Shown here: positions 903 through 7,631 of the stretch, one piece after another
Position numbering within the stretch: the stretch's first letter is position 1
Layout: every line of letters starts with the position of its first letter
Assembly: GCA_029855935.1 (NCBI GenBank)
Contig: JAGSHN010000005.1
Location: forward strand, 32,001-96,000
Length of the DNA: 64,000 nt
Source of the DNA: Candidatus Thorarchaeota archaeon
Lineage (GTDB): Archaea; Asgardarchaeota; Thorarchaeia; Thorarchaeales; Thorarchaeaceae
Direction of reading: 5' to 3'
Translations under genes and position numbers: made by a program
Notes under the pieces: generated by a model
The model's database searches: none
What the model was told of the DNA's origin: nothing
What the model saw: the letters and a program-made list of their open reading frames with translations, nothing else

Positions 903-3851
903 CTATATCTCGCCCGCCTCTTCCTGCATAGAGAGGAGTATTCTGTCGGTGGCGGTCACGGCCTGCTTTATGGTCTTCAGGTATTCCTGGCGAGTCTTCT
1001 CAAAGGCAGCCCGGCTGATGCGCTGCTTCTTCTTCCGCAACAGGAGCTGACGCAGCCCAGCCTTTGCACCCTCCATTCTCTCCTCCTGCAGCTCAAGCTG
1101 GGCAATCATATCGCGATACCGTGAGCCGTATTGCATAAGCTCCTGCTTCAGCGAGGAGAGCTCGGACTCTATCTGCTGCAGCTGGCTCTTGATGTCGCGT
1201 TCGCGAACCATGAATTCGCGTTTGGACACCTTGCCTTTCCTCCGAGCCGACTCCAGCTTCTCCAGGTCAAGATTTAGTGCCGTCTTGCGAGAGTATGTCT
1301 TTGCAAACGAACTCAGGAGCTCGGGTGGTGCGCCCACCTGTGCGGCAACAGGGCCGCCCCTAGCTGCGGCCTCAGTAGTCACTTCAAGACGCGCCTTCCT
1401 TGCCACGACGTAGGCCGCTGCCACAAGTCCCACTATTGCAGAGAATATGAGTGGACGAGCAAAGACGCCAATTGTGACCTGATAGATGAGATAGCTCCGG
1501 GGGGGATTGTGGACAGTGGTGTTGAAGTAGCTATACCGGAAGATTGCATTGAATGGCCCACTGAGCAGTCTGTACTCGCCGGATATGTAGACCACGTTGA
1601 CACTCGTGGGAATGATTATGTCGACAGTGTGACTCCGGACGAGTAGCTCATCGAGAGTGGCCATCGGGAAATCAATCCTAAGGCCCCGGGGGACAACCTC
1701 CTGATACTCGGGCAGATAGATGTCGTATTCCACATTGAAGGTGTACTTGTAGTTCGGCCAGAAGCCCTTCTCACCGAATCGGTCGGCCTTGAGATTAATG
1801 CGCTGGTCGAAGGTGGCATTCCAGTCATAATCGTGAGGCATAGATGCTGCCAAGATTCCCACTTGATCGTAGATTCGGATGTTTGACGCATACGCTGGAA
1901 ACGTGAACGTGAGATCGTTCTCACGCGCGGGACCGATGTTGTCAACGTGTATTGTTTCTTTGTAGTGAAGCCAGCCCCATGGGTCCACAGTTATCTCCGT
2001 TGTCCGCGTGGCGGCAAGAAGTGGTGTGAACGACTTTATGACAATCTCGAAAGACTCTACTGTCATGGGAGCTATGTTCGTGTACACACCCTCTGGATTG
2101 GTACCTGAATGCAGGCTGTCGCCACTCCGAAATCCTATCGTGAATGACAGCCGGGAGATGACATATGGGACCACCGGATACTTCAGAAAGCGCATCTCGT
2201 AGAGGTTGTCATCGGAGTTGATGAGTGTGTGAGTCGAATGGAAGAACATTCGGACCGTGAATTCGTATGTTTCGCCAGGCTCGACTTGATCCAAGAAGTA
2301 GACGCGCCAGCGGTACATTCCGTTGTAGTCACCCACACGGACGACCTGTAGCGCTGCCTCACTCTCACTCTCGGCCTCTATGGACATGAAGTTTGACGTG
2401 TAGGGCTTTGGGAGAAACACGTCGAAAGCGCTGATTGGAACGGCGTCATCGTTTACGATTGTGAAAACGTCTTCAGACTTGACCGAGTGATACAACAGTG
2501 TGCTGACCGTTCGGGCCACCCTAAGAGTGATTCCAAGCAACGGCGTGTAGGGAATCTCGACGGTCACATTGATGAACATCACCGAGGTTGTGTTGGAGGG
2601 GTCTGTTGCATTGAACCAGAGCGTATGGGCCGTGCCCGACTCATAGTCAGACACGTCAAGCACGCCAGTCCACAGATCAGACTTGAAGTCGTACTCAAGC
2701 GGATTCCACGACTCGTTGTCAAATCGGAAAAAGGCCCGTCGCACCCATGAGTTGTCTGTGATGTTGATGCGGAGGTCCATAATCCAGTCAAGTGAGTCGC
2801 CATCCTTGGGACTCACAGGATTAATCCTAGGCGGCGTATTCGGCACGAGCCGAATCATCATCGGGCTCGACCAATCCGTATGACGCACGGGAAAGCCGTC
2901 GATGTCCTCATCAGCACCAATAAGTAAGACAAAGGGATAGTAGATGTTGTTGGCGCTGACAAGAGGAACGTCGTTGGTGTCCGTACTGTTCATCCGAATG
3001 AAGTACTCAATGCTGGTGGTAGCACCGTTGTCGCTAGCGTTTGCTGCCAGTATTCTGGTCGAGTCGTCATCAGGAAGGTGGTTGAACGTGCTGACACCGT
3101 GATCGTCACGATAGACAATTCTGCTGTAGTCAGCCGGGTTCTCCTCGCTGGACCCAATCTTGCGAAGTGTCACCACGTACTCAAGGTCCTTTCCGTAAAG
3201 CTCGTGGCCAGGGGAGTTGTAGGCCTCCTCCGCGGGGATTATGAAGTGTCTGACCTCGCCCACGCGCATGCCAATTATCGCCTCCTTGTAGGCGGTCAGC
3301 AGCTTTTCCTCATTGAGGGGTGTATCCCCGGTTCCGTCCGGGGCCATCCCCTCCTCCAGCAGAGTCCCGTTCCTGTCGTATAGACGATACTCGACCGCCA
3401 CGACCTCATTTCCGGTGACACGTGGAAATGCCTTATGAGGTGTTCCGGGAGCAAAGCCATAGACTAGGTCCGTGTTGTTCAGGCCATCGGTGGTATAGGT
3501 GCCATTGGGAGCCTTCCATCCTATGCCAACCCAACCCGAGGTGGGAGCCTCTAGGCCGACGAATAGAACGGATGAGTTGTGCTCCATATAGACTGTGACT
3601 CCCGTCGCAGGGTCTGTGAAGTTGAGGGCATACTCCTGCGGGTCGATTATCCCATCTGCATAGCCATAGTGCTGGTCGACAAATGGAGCCGAGATGTTGG
3701 GCAAAGAGGATGCCAGCACAGGCTGAGGGCTGTTTGACGACAGAGAAACCGGATGCGTACCGAGTGTACCGTCAGCTGGGAGAGAGCTCAGTCCAACCAA
3801 CAGTGTCAACAATGCCACGACAATGATTTGTCTATGCAGATGGTTCAACAC
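903..3851 (-). CDS. Secreted/type-I membrane protein: DOMON-like domain with inserted FKBP-type PPIase, Ig-like domain, ribophorin I (Ost1/RPN1)-like region, TM helix, cytoplasmic helical bundle
   Basis: N-terminal signal peptide. DOMON-like GWVGIGW...DLVYG. FKBP-like VAVEYRLYD..G...EAIIGMRVGE.RHFIIPAEEAY...LYGKDLEYVV. RPN1-like RTTEITVDPWGWLHYKETIHVDNIGP. TM LIFSAIVGLVAAAYVVA, then a coiled-coil tail. Many N-x-S/T sequons. Confidence 0.75.
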   Translation of the reverse strand: MLNHLHRQIIVVALLTLLVGLSSLPADGTLGTHPVSLSSNSPQPVLASSLPNISAPFVDQHYGYADGIIDPQEYALNFTDPATGVTVYMEHNSSVLFVGLEAPTSGWVGIGWKAPNGTYTTDGLNNTDLVYGFAPGTPHKAFPRVTGNEVVAVEYRLYDRNGTLLEEGMAPDGTGDTPLNEEKLLTAYKEAIIGMRVGEVRHFIIPAEEAYNSPGHELYGKDLEYVVTLRKIGSSEENPADYSRIVYRDDHGVSTFNHLPDDDSTRILAANASDNGATTSIEYFIRMNSTDTNDVPLVSANNIYYPFVLLIGADEDIDGFPVRHTDWSSPMMIRLVPNTPPRINPVSPKDGDSLDWIMDLRINITDNSWVRRAFFRFDNESWNPLEYDFKSDLWTGVLDVSDYESGTAHTLWFNATDPSNTTSVMFINVTVEIPYTPLLGITLRVARTVSTLLYHSVKSEDVFTIVNDDAVPISAFDVFLPKPYTSNFMSIEAESESEAALQVVRVGDYNGMYRWRVYFLDQVEPGETYEFTVRMFFHSTHTLINSDDNLYEMRFLKYPVVPYVISRLSFTIGFRSGDSLHSGTNPEGVYTNIAPMTVESFEIVIKSFTPLLAATRTTEITVDPWGWLHYKETIHVDNIGPARENDLTFTFPAYASNIRIYDQVGILAASMPHDYDWNATFDQRINLKADRFGEKGFWPNYKYTFNVEYDIYLPEYQEVVPRGLRIDFPMATLDELLVRSHTVDIIIPTSVNVVYISGEYRLLSGPFNAIFRYSYFNTTVHNPPRSYLIYQVTIGVFARPLIFSAIVGLVAAAYVVARKARLEVTTEAAARGGPVAAQVGAPPELLSSFAKTYSRKTALNLDLEKLESARRKGKVSKREFMVRERDIKSQLQQIESELSSLKQELMQYGSRYRDMIAQLELQEERMEGAKAGLRQLLLRKKKQRISRAAFEKTRQEYLKTIKQAVTATDRILLSMQEEAGEI

Positions 3852-4046
3852 AGTATCACCCTGCTGATATGGTCTTGGTATCTCGTGCAGAGCCTTTGCT
3901 ACACTGCAAACGCGGCGCCCCAGCAGTCGGGACAGTTAAAACAGTTTCGGACGTCAAAGCAGTGTACGAAGAAGAACAGGAGCGCCTCGCAGAGCCCAAA
4001 GCATAAAATATCGATGTGACAGCCGACTCATCCGGAGTGACGCCAC

Positions 4047-5078
4047 TTGTATCTGCTGCTACTCTCAGTCCTAATCGCCTTCGTGATAGTCATCGTCGTG
4101 ATGCCGAGCACTATCCGGCTTCTACAAGAGAGAGGCCAGATGGGCATTGATGTGCACAAGCCGGATCAACCCGAGGTCCCCAAGGGGGGCGGCTTTGTGG
4201 TGCTGTTCGCCATTGTGACCTCTCTGCTCCTCATCATAGGCGGCACCACATTCACAGATGGAGTTGCCAATCCAGCACTCCTCGCATCACTCGTTTCAAT
4301 TCTGATGGCTGGAATGATTGGTCTACTGGACGACAATCTGGACTTCAGGAATCGGACTAAGATTATCCTCCCCCTATTGGCCTCAATACCATTGGCAGCA
4401 GTACGCGCAGGCACTACAAAGATGGCCATTCCCCTCATAGGCGAGATCAACCTTGGCCTGATGTATCCACTTGTCATCGTGCCACTGATGATGACATTCA
4501 TTGTCGACTCCACGAACATGTACGGCGGCATGAATGGCCTTGAGGCGGGGCTCGCAGCCATCAATTCTTCAGCCATTGTCTTGTATGCGTTCCTGTGGCC
4601 CCTATTTACCGGCTCGACACAACCGCAGTCGACCATTGAGGCAGGCATCGTCGCAGGAGCGCTTATGGGGGCCTCTGTAGCGTTCTGGCTGTTCAACAGG
4701 TACCCGGCCAAGGTTCTGCCCGGCGACGTTGGAAGACTGCCAATGGGTGCGGCGATAGCAGCAGCTCTCATTCTCGGGAATATGGACAGGTTGGCAATAC
4801 TGCTCTACGTTCCCTTCGGCCTCAACTTTCTGTTGTACATAGTGTACCGACTCCATGTGAGGAGGACTGGCATGGAGTATGCGAAGTTTGCATCTCCAAG
4901 GGAGGACGGTACCCTTGAGGTTGTTGGACCATTCACGGTCTACTGGATAGTACCGTATCTGTGGAGAGTCACAGAGAAGAGGAATGTGGAGATTCTTCTG
5001 CTTGTCCAAGCAGTAATAGCGTATGGTACGGTGTTGATGTTGCTGCTGGGGTATCCCTTCGGCGTCGGCTGGATCTAG
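4047..5078 (+). CDS. aglH: UDP-GlcNAc:dolichol-phosphate GlcNAc-1-phosphotransferase (AglH/Alg7/GPT, MraY family)
   Basis: Polytopic. Motifs GIDVHK...VPKGGG, GLLDD, NMYGGMNGLE, FNRYPAKVLPGDVG. Confidence 0.85.
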   Translation: MYLLLLSVLIAFVIVIVVMPSTIRLLQERGQMGIDVHKPDQPEVPKGGGFVVLFAIVTSLLLIIGGTTFTDGVANPALLASLVSILMAGMIGLLDDNLDFRNRTKIILPLLASIPLAAVRAGTTKMAIPLIGEINLGLMYPLVIVPLMMTFIVDSTNMYGGMNGLEAGLAAINSSAIVLYAFLWPLFTGSTQPQSTIEAGIVAGALMGASVAFWLFNRYPAKVLPGDVGRLPMGAAIAAALILGNMDRLAILLYVPFGLNFLLYIVYRLHVRRTGMEYAKFASPREDGTLEVVGPFTVYWIVPYLWRVTEKRNVEILLLVQAVIAYGTVLMLLLGYPFGVGWI

Positions 5079-6127
5079 CCCAGCTTGTCAGCCAGATAGT
5101 GCTCCACCACAAAGTCCATGCCATACCTGCTGAAGGCCTGCTGCTCGGCCTTCTTGCGCAGGGACTTGAAGCCAGCAATATGATGCTGACATTCTGGAGA
5201 GCTGTATCGCACATCGTTAGACAGTTCGTCCAGCCGGCGGAGATCTGCATCATTTAGAGGCTCAGTGGGAAGAGTGTAGTCCCGGATATCGTCGGGAGTA
5301 ACACCAATCCAAGCGGCATCAGGTACTACGAGACCAGGGACATGTGCGGCGTTCGCACTACCAGAGATTATGACTCGTGCGATGTGCATCCCCCACGGAT
5401 CACCATCCGTGAAGATGTACACCGGCAGGTCTAGGGCATCATGCAGGAGACGAATCATACGACGGGTTGCACGTGGCGGCTGGCCCCCCAGATGGACGAG
5501 AATTGCTCTGAAACGCTTCCACGCCCCTGTCTCGATGAGGCGGGAGAACATGCCACCAGACTCAACTGCAAGAATGAGTTTCGCATCCGCTGAGATCGGC
5601 TCTGCGGTGACAAGTGCGGGTCCTATTGGGAAACCGTCCGGGCTGAGGGTAAGGTCGATGACCCTGCCCTCATATCCGGGCACTGTATACCTCATCTTGA
5701 CCGCCCCATAGATTGAGGACCTCTCTTCAGGAAATATGCCGAAGTCCTCGCGGGAGAAACCCGTGACACACTCAAGGTCGGCCACTGTACGGTCAGACTC
5801 GGCCTGATCCTTGAACCTTATTCCAAAGGCCTCGGCGGAGTAGTAGAGGTCCCTTAGCGAGCTTGTCCGCCCAGACACAAGAAGACGCTTCGCATACGAT
5901 GCCACCCAGACCAGCTGAGCGAAGCTGCGGATGTGCTTCAGGTTGCTCGAGTCCCTGACCACCTTCTTGGGGCCCATCACAAATTGGTGACGCTGCTCAT
6001 CAAAGACTATGTTTGTAGTTCCCCTGTCGGGAATCTCGAGTACTGGGAACTCGCCAGAGCGAATGCTCTCGACTATGCGATGGCCTATGCCACGAAGCAG
6101 ATGCAGGGGCTGGGCAGGGTCACTCAT
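5075..6127 (-). CDS. top6A: DNA topoisomerase VI subunit A
   Basis: RDLYY catalytic Tyr, toprim DGDPWG, KAEQQAF. Start taken at ATG 6127 (MSDP), overlapping the top6B end. Confidence 0.93.
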   Translation of the reverse strand: MSDPAQPLHLLRGIGHRIVESIRSGEFPVLEIPDRGTTNIVFDEQRHQFVMGPKKVVRDSSNLKHIRSFAQLVWVASYAKRLLVSGRTSSLRDLYYSAEAFGIRFKDQAESDRTVADLECVTGFSREDFGIFPEERSSIYGAVKMRYTVPGYEGRVIDLTLSPDGFPIGPALVTAEPISADAKLILAVESGGMFSRLIETGAWKRFRAILVHLGGQPPRATRRMIRLLHDALDLPVYIFTDGDPWGMHIARVIISGSANAAHVPGLVVPDAAWIGVTPDDIRDYTLPTEPLNDADLRRLDELSNDVRYSSPECQHHIAGFKSLRKKAEQQAFSRYGMDFVVEHYLADKLG

Positions 6128-7631
6128 CAATATCAACTCCAAACAGTGTCTGGACAAGGTGGCCCGTAGGGGGCACTGGAACATCCGCGAGCTCGGCACC
6201 GTATTTCACAACAAGGGAAAAGAAGCGCTTGAACTCCCTCAATCGCCGCGACTCACGAGCCGCACGTGCTCGAGATCCTGATAGTCTACCTAACTTGCGC
6301 CCCAGGTCCCTGTAGAGATGCTGAACCTCTGTCTCTATCTCAGGAATGGTGTCTATCGACTGTTTTCCTGCTGCCCGGTAGGGAATTCTCGTTGAACATA
6401 CGTGGACGAGGATCACAGGAGTGCCGAGATCCATTATGCCGTATCTTGACCAGTTCGTTTCACGGAGGCCCTTGGTGAGTACACAGCCACTGGCATCATA
6501 GAGCAAAGGTACTCTGTTGGCAAATCTGTAGAGGATTGGGAAACTGCCAGATGTGTTGCGAAACCCCCTCGCGACACAGAGGACCGCCTCGATCAATAGC
6601 GGGTTGCCATTCCACTCTGTGGGGCCCCTCACGGCATATGCGGCAATGTCACACTCAAAGAGAGAACGAACTGCAGTCAGCATCGGTTCCTTTCCTACAG
6701 GGCTGAGGCAGTCTGAGGACGGTTTCTGAATGCCCTGAAAGGAACGCAGCGCGGAGCTCAGGGTAAGAATGTCATCACGGTCCAGTTCCGCTGTCTTCCT
6801 ATTCGGGTCGATGTTTGCAAATCTCAGTAGTCGGCTGGCTGTTCTCGTACCCAGCTGTTGAAACGAACTGACGAGGAACTCCCTGACCCGGATGCCGGGA
6901 CTCGCGGATATCATACGACGCAATAGTTCCACATCAGCAGCTCGAGGGTGCGGCCGACAGACTCGTGACCGTCTTGGGAGTTCGCGCGTGTGTGGACCGA
7001 CACGAATGTGACTATCATCAATTGAGAGGGAGAACAGAACGTGCGGAGATACTATGGTACTCAGGCGCACATAGTCCAGTATACGTTCCTGGGAGCGCGC
7101 GAGATTGCCTCTCAGACGGATTGTCACTGTCGTCCCGGGACCTTCGCGCTCGCCCTCGCTCTCACTGACCACTACGGGCCTGTTCTTCTGTACGTCAATC
7201 AGTATCTCAAATCGCTTGGCCGGCTGTTCGCCACACTTGGTCTCCACCATGACTGGGGAATCTGTCGTAATCTGACCGTACAGAACAGCCATAGTGACAC
7301 CAAGGCCAAAGGTACCTCGTTGCTGACACATAGCGAACTTGCTGCCAAAGAGAACCCGACCGAATGCCTCGGGAACATGCTCATATGAAACCCCTGATCC
7401 ATTGTCTGTCACCGAAACTTCGTAGGTCTTAGGGGCCACTGTGCGGACCCTGATGTCGACTACCGGATTGACACCAGCGAGGTCACATGCATCGAGACTG
7501 TTCTCGACGAGTTCACGAACTGTTGAGAACAGGGCTTGTGCAGGATTGCCAAAGCCCGCCATCTGTCTGTTTCTGTAGAAGAATTCTGCTGGCGAGATAC
7601 TCCCGAATGAGTCATCTGGTAACGAGTCCAT
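6120..7631 (-). CDS. top6B: DNA topoisomerase VI subunit B
   Basis: SPAEFFYRN, ELVENSLDAC, DNGSG, QRGTFGLG, RFANRVPLLY. Confidence 0.95.
   Translation of the reverse strand: MDSLPDDSFGSISPAEFFYRNRQMAGFGNPAQALFSTVRELVENSLDACDLAGVNPVVDIRVRTVAPKTYEVSVTDNGSGVSYEHVPEAFGRVLFGSKFAMCQQRGTFGLGVTMAVLYGQITTDSPVMVETKCGEQPAKRFEILIDVQKNRPVVVSESEGEREGPGTTVTIRLRGNLARSQERILDYVRLSTIVSPHVLFSLSIDDSHIRVGPHTRELPRRSRVCRPHPRAADVELLRRMISASPGIRVREFLVSSFQQLGTRTASRLLRFANIDPNRKTAELDRDDILTLSSALRSFQGIQKPSSDCLSPVGKEPMLTAVRSLFECDIAAYAVRGPTEWNGNPLLIEAVLCVARGFRNTSGSFPILYRFANRVPLLYDASGCVLTKGLRETNWSRYGIMDLGTPVILVHVCSTRIPYRAAGKQSIDTIPEIETEVQHLYRDLGRKLGRLSGSRARAARESRRLREFKRFFSLVVKYGAELADVPVPPTGHLVQTLFGVDIDE

Follow-up and report, generated by a model that had tools for sequence, protein, structure and literature searches.

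Introduction

Ribophorin I is a eukaryotic-signature protein of Asgard archaea, whose oligosaccharyltransferase (OST) is thought to be a single-subunit enzyme, and we know of no role that has been established for ribophorin I in Asgard cells. In humans, ribosome docking by ribophorin I (RPN1) has been shown. The OST1 of Lokiarchaeon MK-D1 has two lumenal-type sandwiches, a single transmembrane (TM) helix and a basic cytoplasmic four-helix bundle, and this cytoplasmic domain (PDB 8WHN) pulls down eukaryotic ribosomes (PMC11417166). Human FKBP11 (PDB 9YGY) is a single-pass FKBP at the ribosome-bound OST-A translocon, where CCDC134 covers and buries its pocket and FKBP11 seemingly serves as an adaptor (PMC12804085); ribophorin I is also bound by the lectin malectin (PMC9144812). 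Here we describe a gene at positions 903-3851 (minus strand) of a 64,000-nucleotide stretch from Candidatus Thorarchaeota (assembly GCA_029855935.1, contig JAGSHN010000005.1, positions 32,001 to 96,000; the whole stretch is called the window below), in which a ribophorin I/OST1 with the same layout as the MK-D1 protein is fused to an N-terminal module made of a DOMON-type sandwich, an FKBP nested within it and an Ig-like domain.

The components and the OST1 family were already known; the domain combination and the nested topology are new. The initial annotation, made from the sequence alone, knew of no description of this architecture, and in that it agrees with our full-text literature searches, which found no publication of an FKBP/DOMON-OST1 fusion; none is described either in the listed titles and abstracts of papers on Thorarchaeota with ribophorin or FKBP and on Asgard archaea with DOMON. 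A whole Asgard class has joined a folding-type domain and a ligand-binding sandwich to OST1 and kept the fusion beside the gene for a glycan-initiating enzyme, a Glycos_transf_4 (GT4) protein. The fusion and its linkage to the GT4 gene are a concrete and testable pointer to a role of archaeal OST1 in handling exported nascent chains where ribosome, Sec and AglB meet, and the Thorarchaeota (Thor) fusion presents a natural single-chain analogue of human RPN1, FKBP11 and malectin.

Results

A single gene encodes a predicted type I membrane protein

Read on the minus strand, positions 903-3851 form one open reading frame (ORF) of 982 codons with a GTG start and no internal stops, giving a 982-aa product; the plus-strand reading was ruled out by its many stops. 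The source genome is 2.97 Mb in size and 97% complete, and the stretch is contained in one DNA run from a hydrothermal-vent metagenome, with no RNA run listed. The nearest database proteins, from Candidatus Thorarchaeota, align over their full length at 46-62% identity. Most are named 'FKBP-type peptidyl-prolyl cis-trans isomerase' at NCBI, the others being hypothetical proteins.

The N-terminus carries a hydrophobic, signal-like segment (residues 5-27). Cysteines are absent from the entire 982-aa protein and hence from this segment, so the product is not a lipoprotein. Ahead of the TM helix there are 15 N-X-S/T sequons, where shuffling of the pre-TM region yields 6.6 +/- 2.3 (maximum 14 in 2000 shuffles), and the cytoplasmic part has 0. 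Thirteen sequon columns are conserved, each of them kept in at least 30 of 43 orthologues. Combined, the signal segment, the single TM helix and the restriction of sequons to the exterior fit type I membrane topology, in which a large ectodomain, predicted to be glycosylated, precedes a 160-residue cytoplasmic tail. The cysteine-free ectodomain would be expected to be soluble and hence open to enzymatic, glycan-binding and structural assays.

The C-terminal half is ribophorin I/OST1

Whether the C-terminal half matches ribophorin I had been set beforehand as one of two refuting tests of the initial annotation, and the match proved extensive. A Foldseek search of the PDB with an AlphaFold2 model of residues 432-982 (pLDDT 88) returned eight top matches that are all OST subunit-1 chains, four human (8B6L_O, 6S7O_E, 8PN9_E, 6S7T_E) and four yeast (7OCI_A, 6EZN_A, 8AGB_E, 6C26_1), with E values of 1e-30 to 6e-18; the next match stands at 3e-8. 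VIA-align comparisons of the model with RPN1/Ost1 chains gave Z scores of 26-31, covering residues 28-607 of the human and 25-474 of the yeast chains. These ranges match the lengths of RPN1 and Ost1, which we take to be 607 and 476 aa, so the structural matches fit RPN1 in the human chains and Ost1 in the yeast chains. Likeness to the eukaryotic proteins (6S7O, 6S7T, 8B6L; 6EZN, 7OCI) covers the whole fold of the half, TM helix and bundle included, whereas sequence identity is 13-15%. The next unrelated fold, an M1 aminopeptidase N-domain (VIA Z 13.3), resembles sandwich domain 2.

The cytoplasmic bundle provides the direct sequence link to a described archaeal protein. Its residues 841-972 match PDB 8WHN ('Ribophorin 1 superfamily protein') at E 1.2e-6 by phmmer and 1.6e-9 with the family profile, and VIA superposes 141 of 142 residues at Z 17.4 and a root-mean-square deviation (rmsd) of 1.9 A. 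The bundle is basic (32 K+R vs 23 D+E) and ranks with the best-conserved parts of the family alignment, where it forms a dense run of invariant or near-invariant columns.

PDB sequence searches with the RPN1-like half returned 8WHN as the sole match and no eukaryotic RPN1; the eukaryotic link therefore rests on the fold comparison and on Pfam matches in orthologues. Pfam Ribophorin_I (PF04597) matches 12 of the 43 orthologues (46-61% identity) colinearly, and P0086 (33.2 bits), P0120 (29.2), P0023 (27.4) and P0019 (25.1) exceed the 25-bit cut-off. From these data, the C-terminal half (residues 435-982) is a true ribophorin I/OST1. A scan of the 97%-complete genome found no other Ribophorin_I-like gene, and the fusion gene encodes the sole ribophorin I/OST1 candidate found in this Thorarchaeota genome.

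An FKBP domain is nested in the DOMON sandwich

The AlphaFold2 model of residues 40-436 (pLDDT 90.6, pTM 0.85) is consistent with one confidently packed unit. Foldseek with this three-domain model gave only Ig-dominated, high-rmsd matches, and the domains were resolved by VIA-align, run without a Foldseek pre-filter, and by the ESM-Atlas. Across model residues 12-298, the VIA matches are of DOMON type: ethylbenzene dehydrogenase gamma (2IVF_C, Z 16.1), NxrC (7B04_C, 15.2), the dopamine beta-hydroxylase DOMON (13.8), the cytochrome domain of cellobiose dehydrogenase (CDH; 12.8) and CBM9 (12.7). An ESM-Atlas cluster that is 100% Pfam DOMON (PF03351) aligns across the insert over 163 aa at rmsd 1.8 A. 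Pfam DOMON also matches 3 of 43 orthologues weakly (best 24.6 bits vs a cut-off of 32.7). The FKBP interrupts the DOMON profile match of one orthologue, P0120, with profile positions 14-63 lying ahead of it and 56-117 behind it.

The FKBP assignment was correctly made in the initial annotation. Pfam FKBP_C (PF00254) matches residues 146-229 (E 1.7e-7, 31.9 bits vs a cut-off of 21.1) and 37 of 43 orthologues, and a profile search matches FKBP2/13 at E 1.4e-7. Residues ~143-235, whose fold was the second refuting test of the initial annotation, do adopt an FKBP fold, for which VIA over model residues 104-196 gives SlyD at Z 12.4 (rmsd 1.9 A, 85 residues, 32% identity), SlpA at 11.9, FKBP13 at 11.5 (rmsd 2.0 A, 92 residues) and FKBP11 at 10.2. 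The best fold matches are accordingly SlyD, SlpA and archaeal short FKBPs (3CGM, 4DT4, 3PRB), with SlyD of Thermus first, and the motif 'H-x-L-(A/Y)-G-x-x-L' after the flap is shared with SlyD-type proteins. Unlike SlyD, the Thor domain has no IF (insert-in-flap) chaperone domain, and host and insert have changed places, with the FKBP now being the part inserted, in a beta-sandwich. It also differs from SlyD-type FKBPs in being extracytoplasmic and sequon-rich.

Since the FKBP span of the model lies inside the DOMON span and the P0120 profile is split at the same place, the FKBP is nested in the DOMON domain and not in tandem with it. All elements of the earlier description (signal peptide, FKBP-like, DOMON-like and Ig-like domains, two RPN1-like domains, TM helix and helical bundle) are thus present in the 982-aa protein, but their serial DOMON-FKBP order has to be replaced by an FKBP between DOMON halves at ~45-143 and 236-337. 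The Ig-like domain that follows is matched by Big_7 in 22 of 43 orthologues, with scores above the cut-off among them, and by VIA at Z 10-13.6 over model residues 299-395.

Membrane-anchored proteins of other Asgard families, encoded at loci L042 932-2104 (+), L043 1058-2770 (-) and L044 949-2664 (+), contain one or two copies of uninterrupted DOMON-like domains with N-terminal motifs as in the Thor module. From these uninterrupted domains, the FKBP insertion point is placed directly after the 'I-I-G-Y' strand.

The FKBP pocket residues are partly conserved and partly remodelled

The pocket was mapped through the HMMER alignment to human FKBP13, using FKBP12 numbering, in which we take the pocket to comprise Y26, F36, D37, F46, V55, I56, W59, Y82 and F99. 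Y26 and Y82 correspond to the invariant Y155 and Y211, and V55, W59 and F99 to L185, Y188 and Y225, each conserved at 90% or more. F36 is replaced by L165 and D37 by E/Q166, and the F46 strand (PFxF, 40s) is shortened. On this residue pattern, a conserved ligand pocket in the nested FKBP is very likely, and prolyl isomerase catalysis appears plausible.

In the sister-family fusion (P0124, residues ~121-232), the pocket string is the canonical one, IFDTS, PLSVNL, VIEGF, GY, LIF. The ancestral fused FKBP therefore looked fully canonical, and the family of the window (f1) remodelled part of the pocket after fusion. A conserved sequon, N161 (R-N-G-T), lies on an FKBP hairpin beside the pocket.

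In the surrounding sandwich, conservation is 86-98% for the histidines H61, H91, H258 and H324 and 74% for M287; the tryptophans W107, W112 and W327 are conserved too. Within the first DOMON half, no methionine of the orthologue alignment reaches a conservation of 70%.

The fusion is a derived feature of Thorarchaeia

When the full-protein profile was searched against 1.84 billion representatives, the full-length fusion appeared in only two of them, and many 550-620-aa proteins aligned to profile positions 434-975 only. In a survey of 400 genomes of the phylum, family f1 contributed 85, of which 82 have the fusion as one ORF of ~985-1000 aa (the three without a match are 86%, 60% and 62% complete); the one genome of the sister family (f2) has it too, at 32% identity. 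In all other families, the matches listed begin at profile position ~430 or later, in ORFs of ~300-650 aa that are mostly 560-630 aa long. Outside the order, the N-module profile met only separate FKBP, DOMON or Ig pieces. The unfused Asgard OST1 proteins of ~560-630 aa align with the Thor protein over profile positions 434-975, whereas the additional N-module of ~400 residues was found fused to OST1 in no other surveyed Asgard family.

The restriction of the fusion to Thorarchaeia, with the unfused protein in the other surveyed Asgard families, indicates a derived accretion and not an ancestral state; the fusion is a class-wide, derived, lineage-specific feature. The earlier suggestion of a 'primitive' quality-control module of the endoplasmic reticulum (ER) is contradicted by this distribution, as other Asgard families keep a ~580-aa unfused protein. 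The Thor module is best regarded as analogous to eukaryotic ER quality control and not ancestral to it. Hodarchaeales, which one study places nearest to eukaryotes (PMC10307638), could not be told apart among the surveyed families. Being lineage-specific, the fusion has no direct bearing on eukaryote ancestry.

Searches of the window's genome for a second OST1 or DOMON-FKBP module found none, only Ig repeats in large surface proteins. A few Thorarchaeota genomes have a second gene for the DOMON(FKBP)-Ig module alone, with an extra Ig-like domain and its own C-terminal TM helix, in proteins of ~570-590 aa (for example at G336:C125:6162-7433 and G317:C23:20689-21876; proteins P0128, P0130, P0131 and P0132). 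In the tree, these copies group within f1 when set against the sister-family fusion, on long branches and with an unresolved basal node, a placement which suggests that they arose by partial duplication. Separate proteins of 165-527 aa with the DOMON(FKBP) module were also considered and proved to be only same-family fragments on short contigs. One fragment of the Thor protein, P0271 (311 aa, on a contig of 2568 bases), is deposited under a 'Deltaproteobacteria bacterium' metagenome-assembled genome, an assignment that is probably a binning error.

The fusion gene keeps a GT4 gene at its head

The features of the gene and its upstream neighbour are collected in Table 1. Sixteen Thor-order loci, spanning at least 15 genera and the sister family, were compared. 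The GT4 gene stands head-to-head with the OST1 fusion in 16/16 of them, with the order HD-like, OST1 and GT4 kept in all, and the longer order HD-like, OST1 fusion, GT4 and topoisomerase VI A and B is kept in 15/16. The remaining locus, L013, has no Top6A/B match and the same HD-like, OST1, GT4 order. Among unfused OST1 loci of other Asgard archaea, GT4 lies within ~5 kb in 2/4, head-to-head in one. In the window, the topoisomerase VI A and B genes occupy 5075-7631 (-), as ORFs at 5075-6199 and 6120-7631 that overlap by ~80 bases.

Table 1 Features of the OST1 fusion gene and its divergent neighbour (window coordinates)
Feature	Position	Strand	Basis
GTG start and signal-peptide-like hydrophobic segment (residues 1-27)	3771..3851	-	translation; Kyte-Doolittle windows >1.6 at residues 1-10 (+19)
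DOMON/CBM9-like sandwich, N-terminal half (residues ~45-143)	3423..3719	-	VIA matches; P0120 DOMON profile 14-63
Nested FKBP-type domain (residues ~144-235), SlyD-like core without IF insert	3147..3422	-	Pfam FKBP_C; VIA
DOMON/CBM9-like sandwich, C-terminal half (residues ~236-337)	2841..3146	-	structural matches as for N-terminal half; P0120 DOMON profile 56-117
Ig-like (Big_7) domain (residues ~338-434)	2550..2840	-	Big_7 in orthologues; VIA
Ribophorin I beta-sandwich domain 1 (residues ~435-610)	2022..2549	-	Foldseek/VIA matches to RPN1/Ost1; orthologue P0068 455-649 = Ribophorin_I profile 12-235
Ribophorin I beta-sandwich domain 2 (residues ~611-793)	1473..2021	-	RPN1/Ost1 matches; orthologue residues ~645-830 = profile 259-436
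Single TM helix (residues ~794-820), then RKAR	1392..1472	-	hydropathy; AlphaFold2 helix at model 363-394
Disordered cytoplasmic linker (residues ~821-840)	1332..1391	-	pLDDT <50 at model residues 391-407
Basic cytoplasmic four-helix bundle (residues 841-982)	906..1331	-	homology to MK-D1 OST1 ribosome-binding domain (8WHN)
Divergent spacer, 195 bp, between OST1 fusion and GT4 gene	3852..4046	.	sequence
Glycos_transf_4 gene (AglH/Alg7/MraY-type phospho-sugar transferase)	4047..5078	+	Pfam PF00953, E 1.5e-27

Genes for STT3/AglB (G000:C14:142877-144115, L001) and an OST3/6-like protein (C14:148213-148530, L032) lie within ~5 kb of one another, ~107-113 kb from the OST1 fusion on the same contig. 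The genome has one other FKBP only, of the cytosolic long type with an IF insert; the nested FKBP is therefore its sole exportable FKBP.

Discussion

A proposed role at the ribosome-Sec-AglB site

We think it probable, with considerable room for doubt, that this protein is a ribophorin I/OST1 whose outer DOMON(FKBP)-Ig module engages nascent chains where ribosome, Sec and AglB meet. In such a model, the cytoplasmic bundle would dock translating ribosomes at the SecYEβ channel and the RPN1 sandwiches would sit beside AglB/STT3. The FKBP, held rigidly in its sandwich, would bind or isomerise prolyl bonds of emerging, glycosylated chains, and the DOMON/CBM9-like sandwich could add another surface, able to bind glycan or unfolded chain. 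The sandwich might in this way take the role of the SlyD IF insert, and that of malectin and FKBP11, which serve the human OST in trans. For the fusion protein we infer that it isomerises prolyl bonds, binds glycan and associates with AglB; the coupling of folding to N-glycosylation proposed in the initial annotation is likewise a prediction.

The comparison with the human proteins is one of analogy and not of orthology, malectin not being a DOMON. The likeness lies in an FKBP and a carbohydrate-binding-type sandwich at the exoplasmic OST/translocon side beside RPN1; the difference is that FKBP11 and malectin are separate proteins recruited in trans, whereas the Thor domains are part of the RPN1 chain. 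Eukaryotic RPN1 itself has neither FKBP nor DOMON, and it works in an eight- or nine-subunit OST.

A bolder version of this proposal, which we put forward tentatively and regard as possible but doubtful, sees a convergent single-chain 'fold-and-glycosylate' station that unites what eukaryotes bring together in trans around RPN1: a ribosome-docked OST1 with a foldase inside a lectin-like sandwich, working on nascent chains at the Sec/AglB exit, in which the beta-sandwich would replace the SlyD IF insert by reversed insertion. It would be the first extracytoplasmic, translocon-coupled archaeal prolyl isomerase described.

Several observations weigh against the main proposal. In the archaea studied so far, AglB functions as a one-subunit enzyme. 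The association of Asgard OST1 with AglB is a predicted one, and the STT3 gene lies ~107 kb away and is not co-located with the OST1 fusion. At the domain level, Pfam Ribophorin_I has no match in the 982-aa protein itself at E values up to 10 and none in the scan of its genome, and Pfam DOMON likewise has no match in the protein; of the profile hidden Markov model scans proposed in the initial annotation, FKBP_C alone (31.9 bits) recognised the protein, the other two families being matched in orthologues. The nested FKBP is without the IF chaperone insert of SlyD-type FKBPs, and as judged from the residues replaced in f1, the partly remodelled pocket may mean that isomerase activity is low or lost. 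Glycoproteomics of MK-D1 is reported to have shown no clearly eukaryote-like traits (PMC11284389), and human FKBP11, with its pocket buried by its partner, apparently serves as an adaptor and not as an isomerase (PMC12804085).

Alternative readings

The FKBP11 precedent, with its pocket buried by CCDC134 in an adaptor role (PMC12804085), leads to the strongest competitor, in which FKBP, DOMON and Ig domains form a non-catalytic scaffold. Such a scaffold would recruit a partner protein or anchor OST1 at surface glycans or at the S-layer, the FKBP pocket serving as a fixed binding site. The f1 pocket agrees with this, the F36-D37 equivalents being L-E/Q and the 40s strand shortened, as do the frequency of DOMON/CBM9 and Big_7 domains in surface proteins and the rigid block suggested by the pTM of 0.85. 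Nonetheless, Y155, Y188, Y211 and Y225 are invariant or nearly so in more than 40 orthologues whose overall identity is ~50%, the sister-family pocket string is fully canonical, and the scaffold has no known partner. We hold this alternative to be rather unlikely.

Less probable again is a foldase or holdase on the outer side of the translocon whose work has no tie to N-glycosylation, like bacterial PpiD/PrsA, with Asgard OST1 serving as a ribosome/Sec nascent-chain scaffold that was later recruited into the eukaryotic OST. An archaeal AglB-OST1 complex is a prediction, the STT3 gene is 107 kb distant, and few regions of the family alignment are as well conserved as the cytoplasmic ribosome-binding domain. 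The existence of stand-alone N-module copies with their own TM helix in a few Thor genomes further indicates that the module can work without the RPN1 domains. Set against these points is the GT4 gene, whose product initiates lipid-linked glycan synthesis and which stands head-to-head with the fusion in every one of the 16 Thor loci and near OST1 in 2/4 non-Thor loci; moreover, the fold of the C-terminal half is that of an OST subunit in every solved structure.

We consider it very improbable that the DOMON sandwich binds haem b and that the module serves redox chemistry outside the cell. Haem-b DOMON-like subunits are indeed its best structural matches (ethylbenzene dehydrogenase gamma, Z 16.1; NxrC, 15.2), and H61, H91, H258, H324 (86-98%) and M287 (74%) are conserved. 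However, CBM9 and non-haem DOMONs match almost equally (Z 12.7-13.8), and there is no redox partner domain in the chain. The CDH-type haem DOMON presumably takes its methionine ligand from the first half, where the Thor family has no methionine conserved at 70% or more. Finally, the chance that the fusion is an assembly or gene-calling artefact is negligible, since the same uninterrupted ORF of ~985-1000 aa, free of internal stops, recurs in 82/85 family genomes and, at 32% identity, in the sister family, which makes it the product of neither chance nor misassembly.

Exported FKBPs in other Asgard families

Small exported, membrane-anchored FKBPs also occur in other Asgard families, at L037 953-1480 (+), L038 938-1576 (+), L039 917-1561 (+), L040 947-1576 (+), L036 974-1459 (-) and L045 974-1504 (-). 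Some consist of a signal peptide, an FKBP and a TM helix, some are extended by a cytoplasmic tail that is Cys-rich and zinc-ribbon-like, and in others the FKBP comes after an N-terminal signal anchor. They do not stand out as donors of the nested domain, their identity to it being 22-30%, no closer than that of cytosolic FKBPs. Their layout equals that of human FKBP11, and the short flap 'P-x-H-x-L-Y-G' is common to them and to the nested Thor FKBP.

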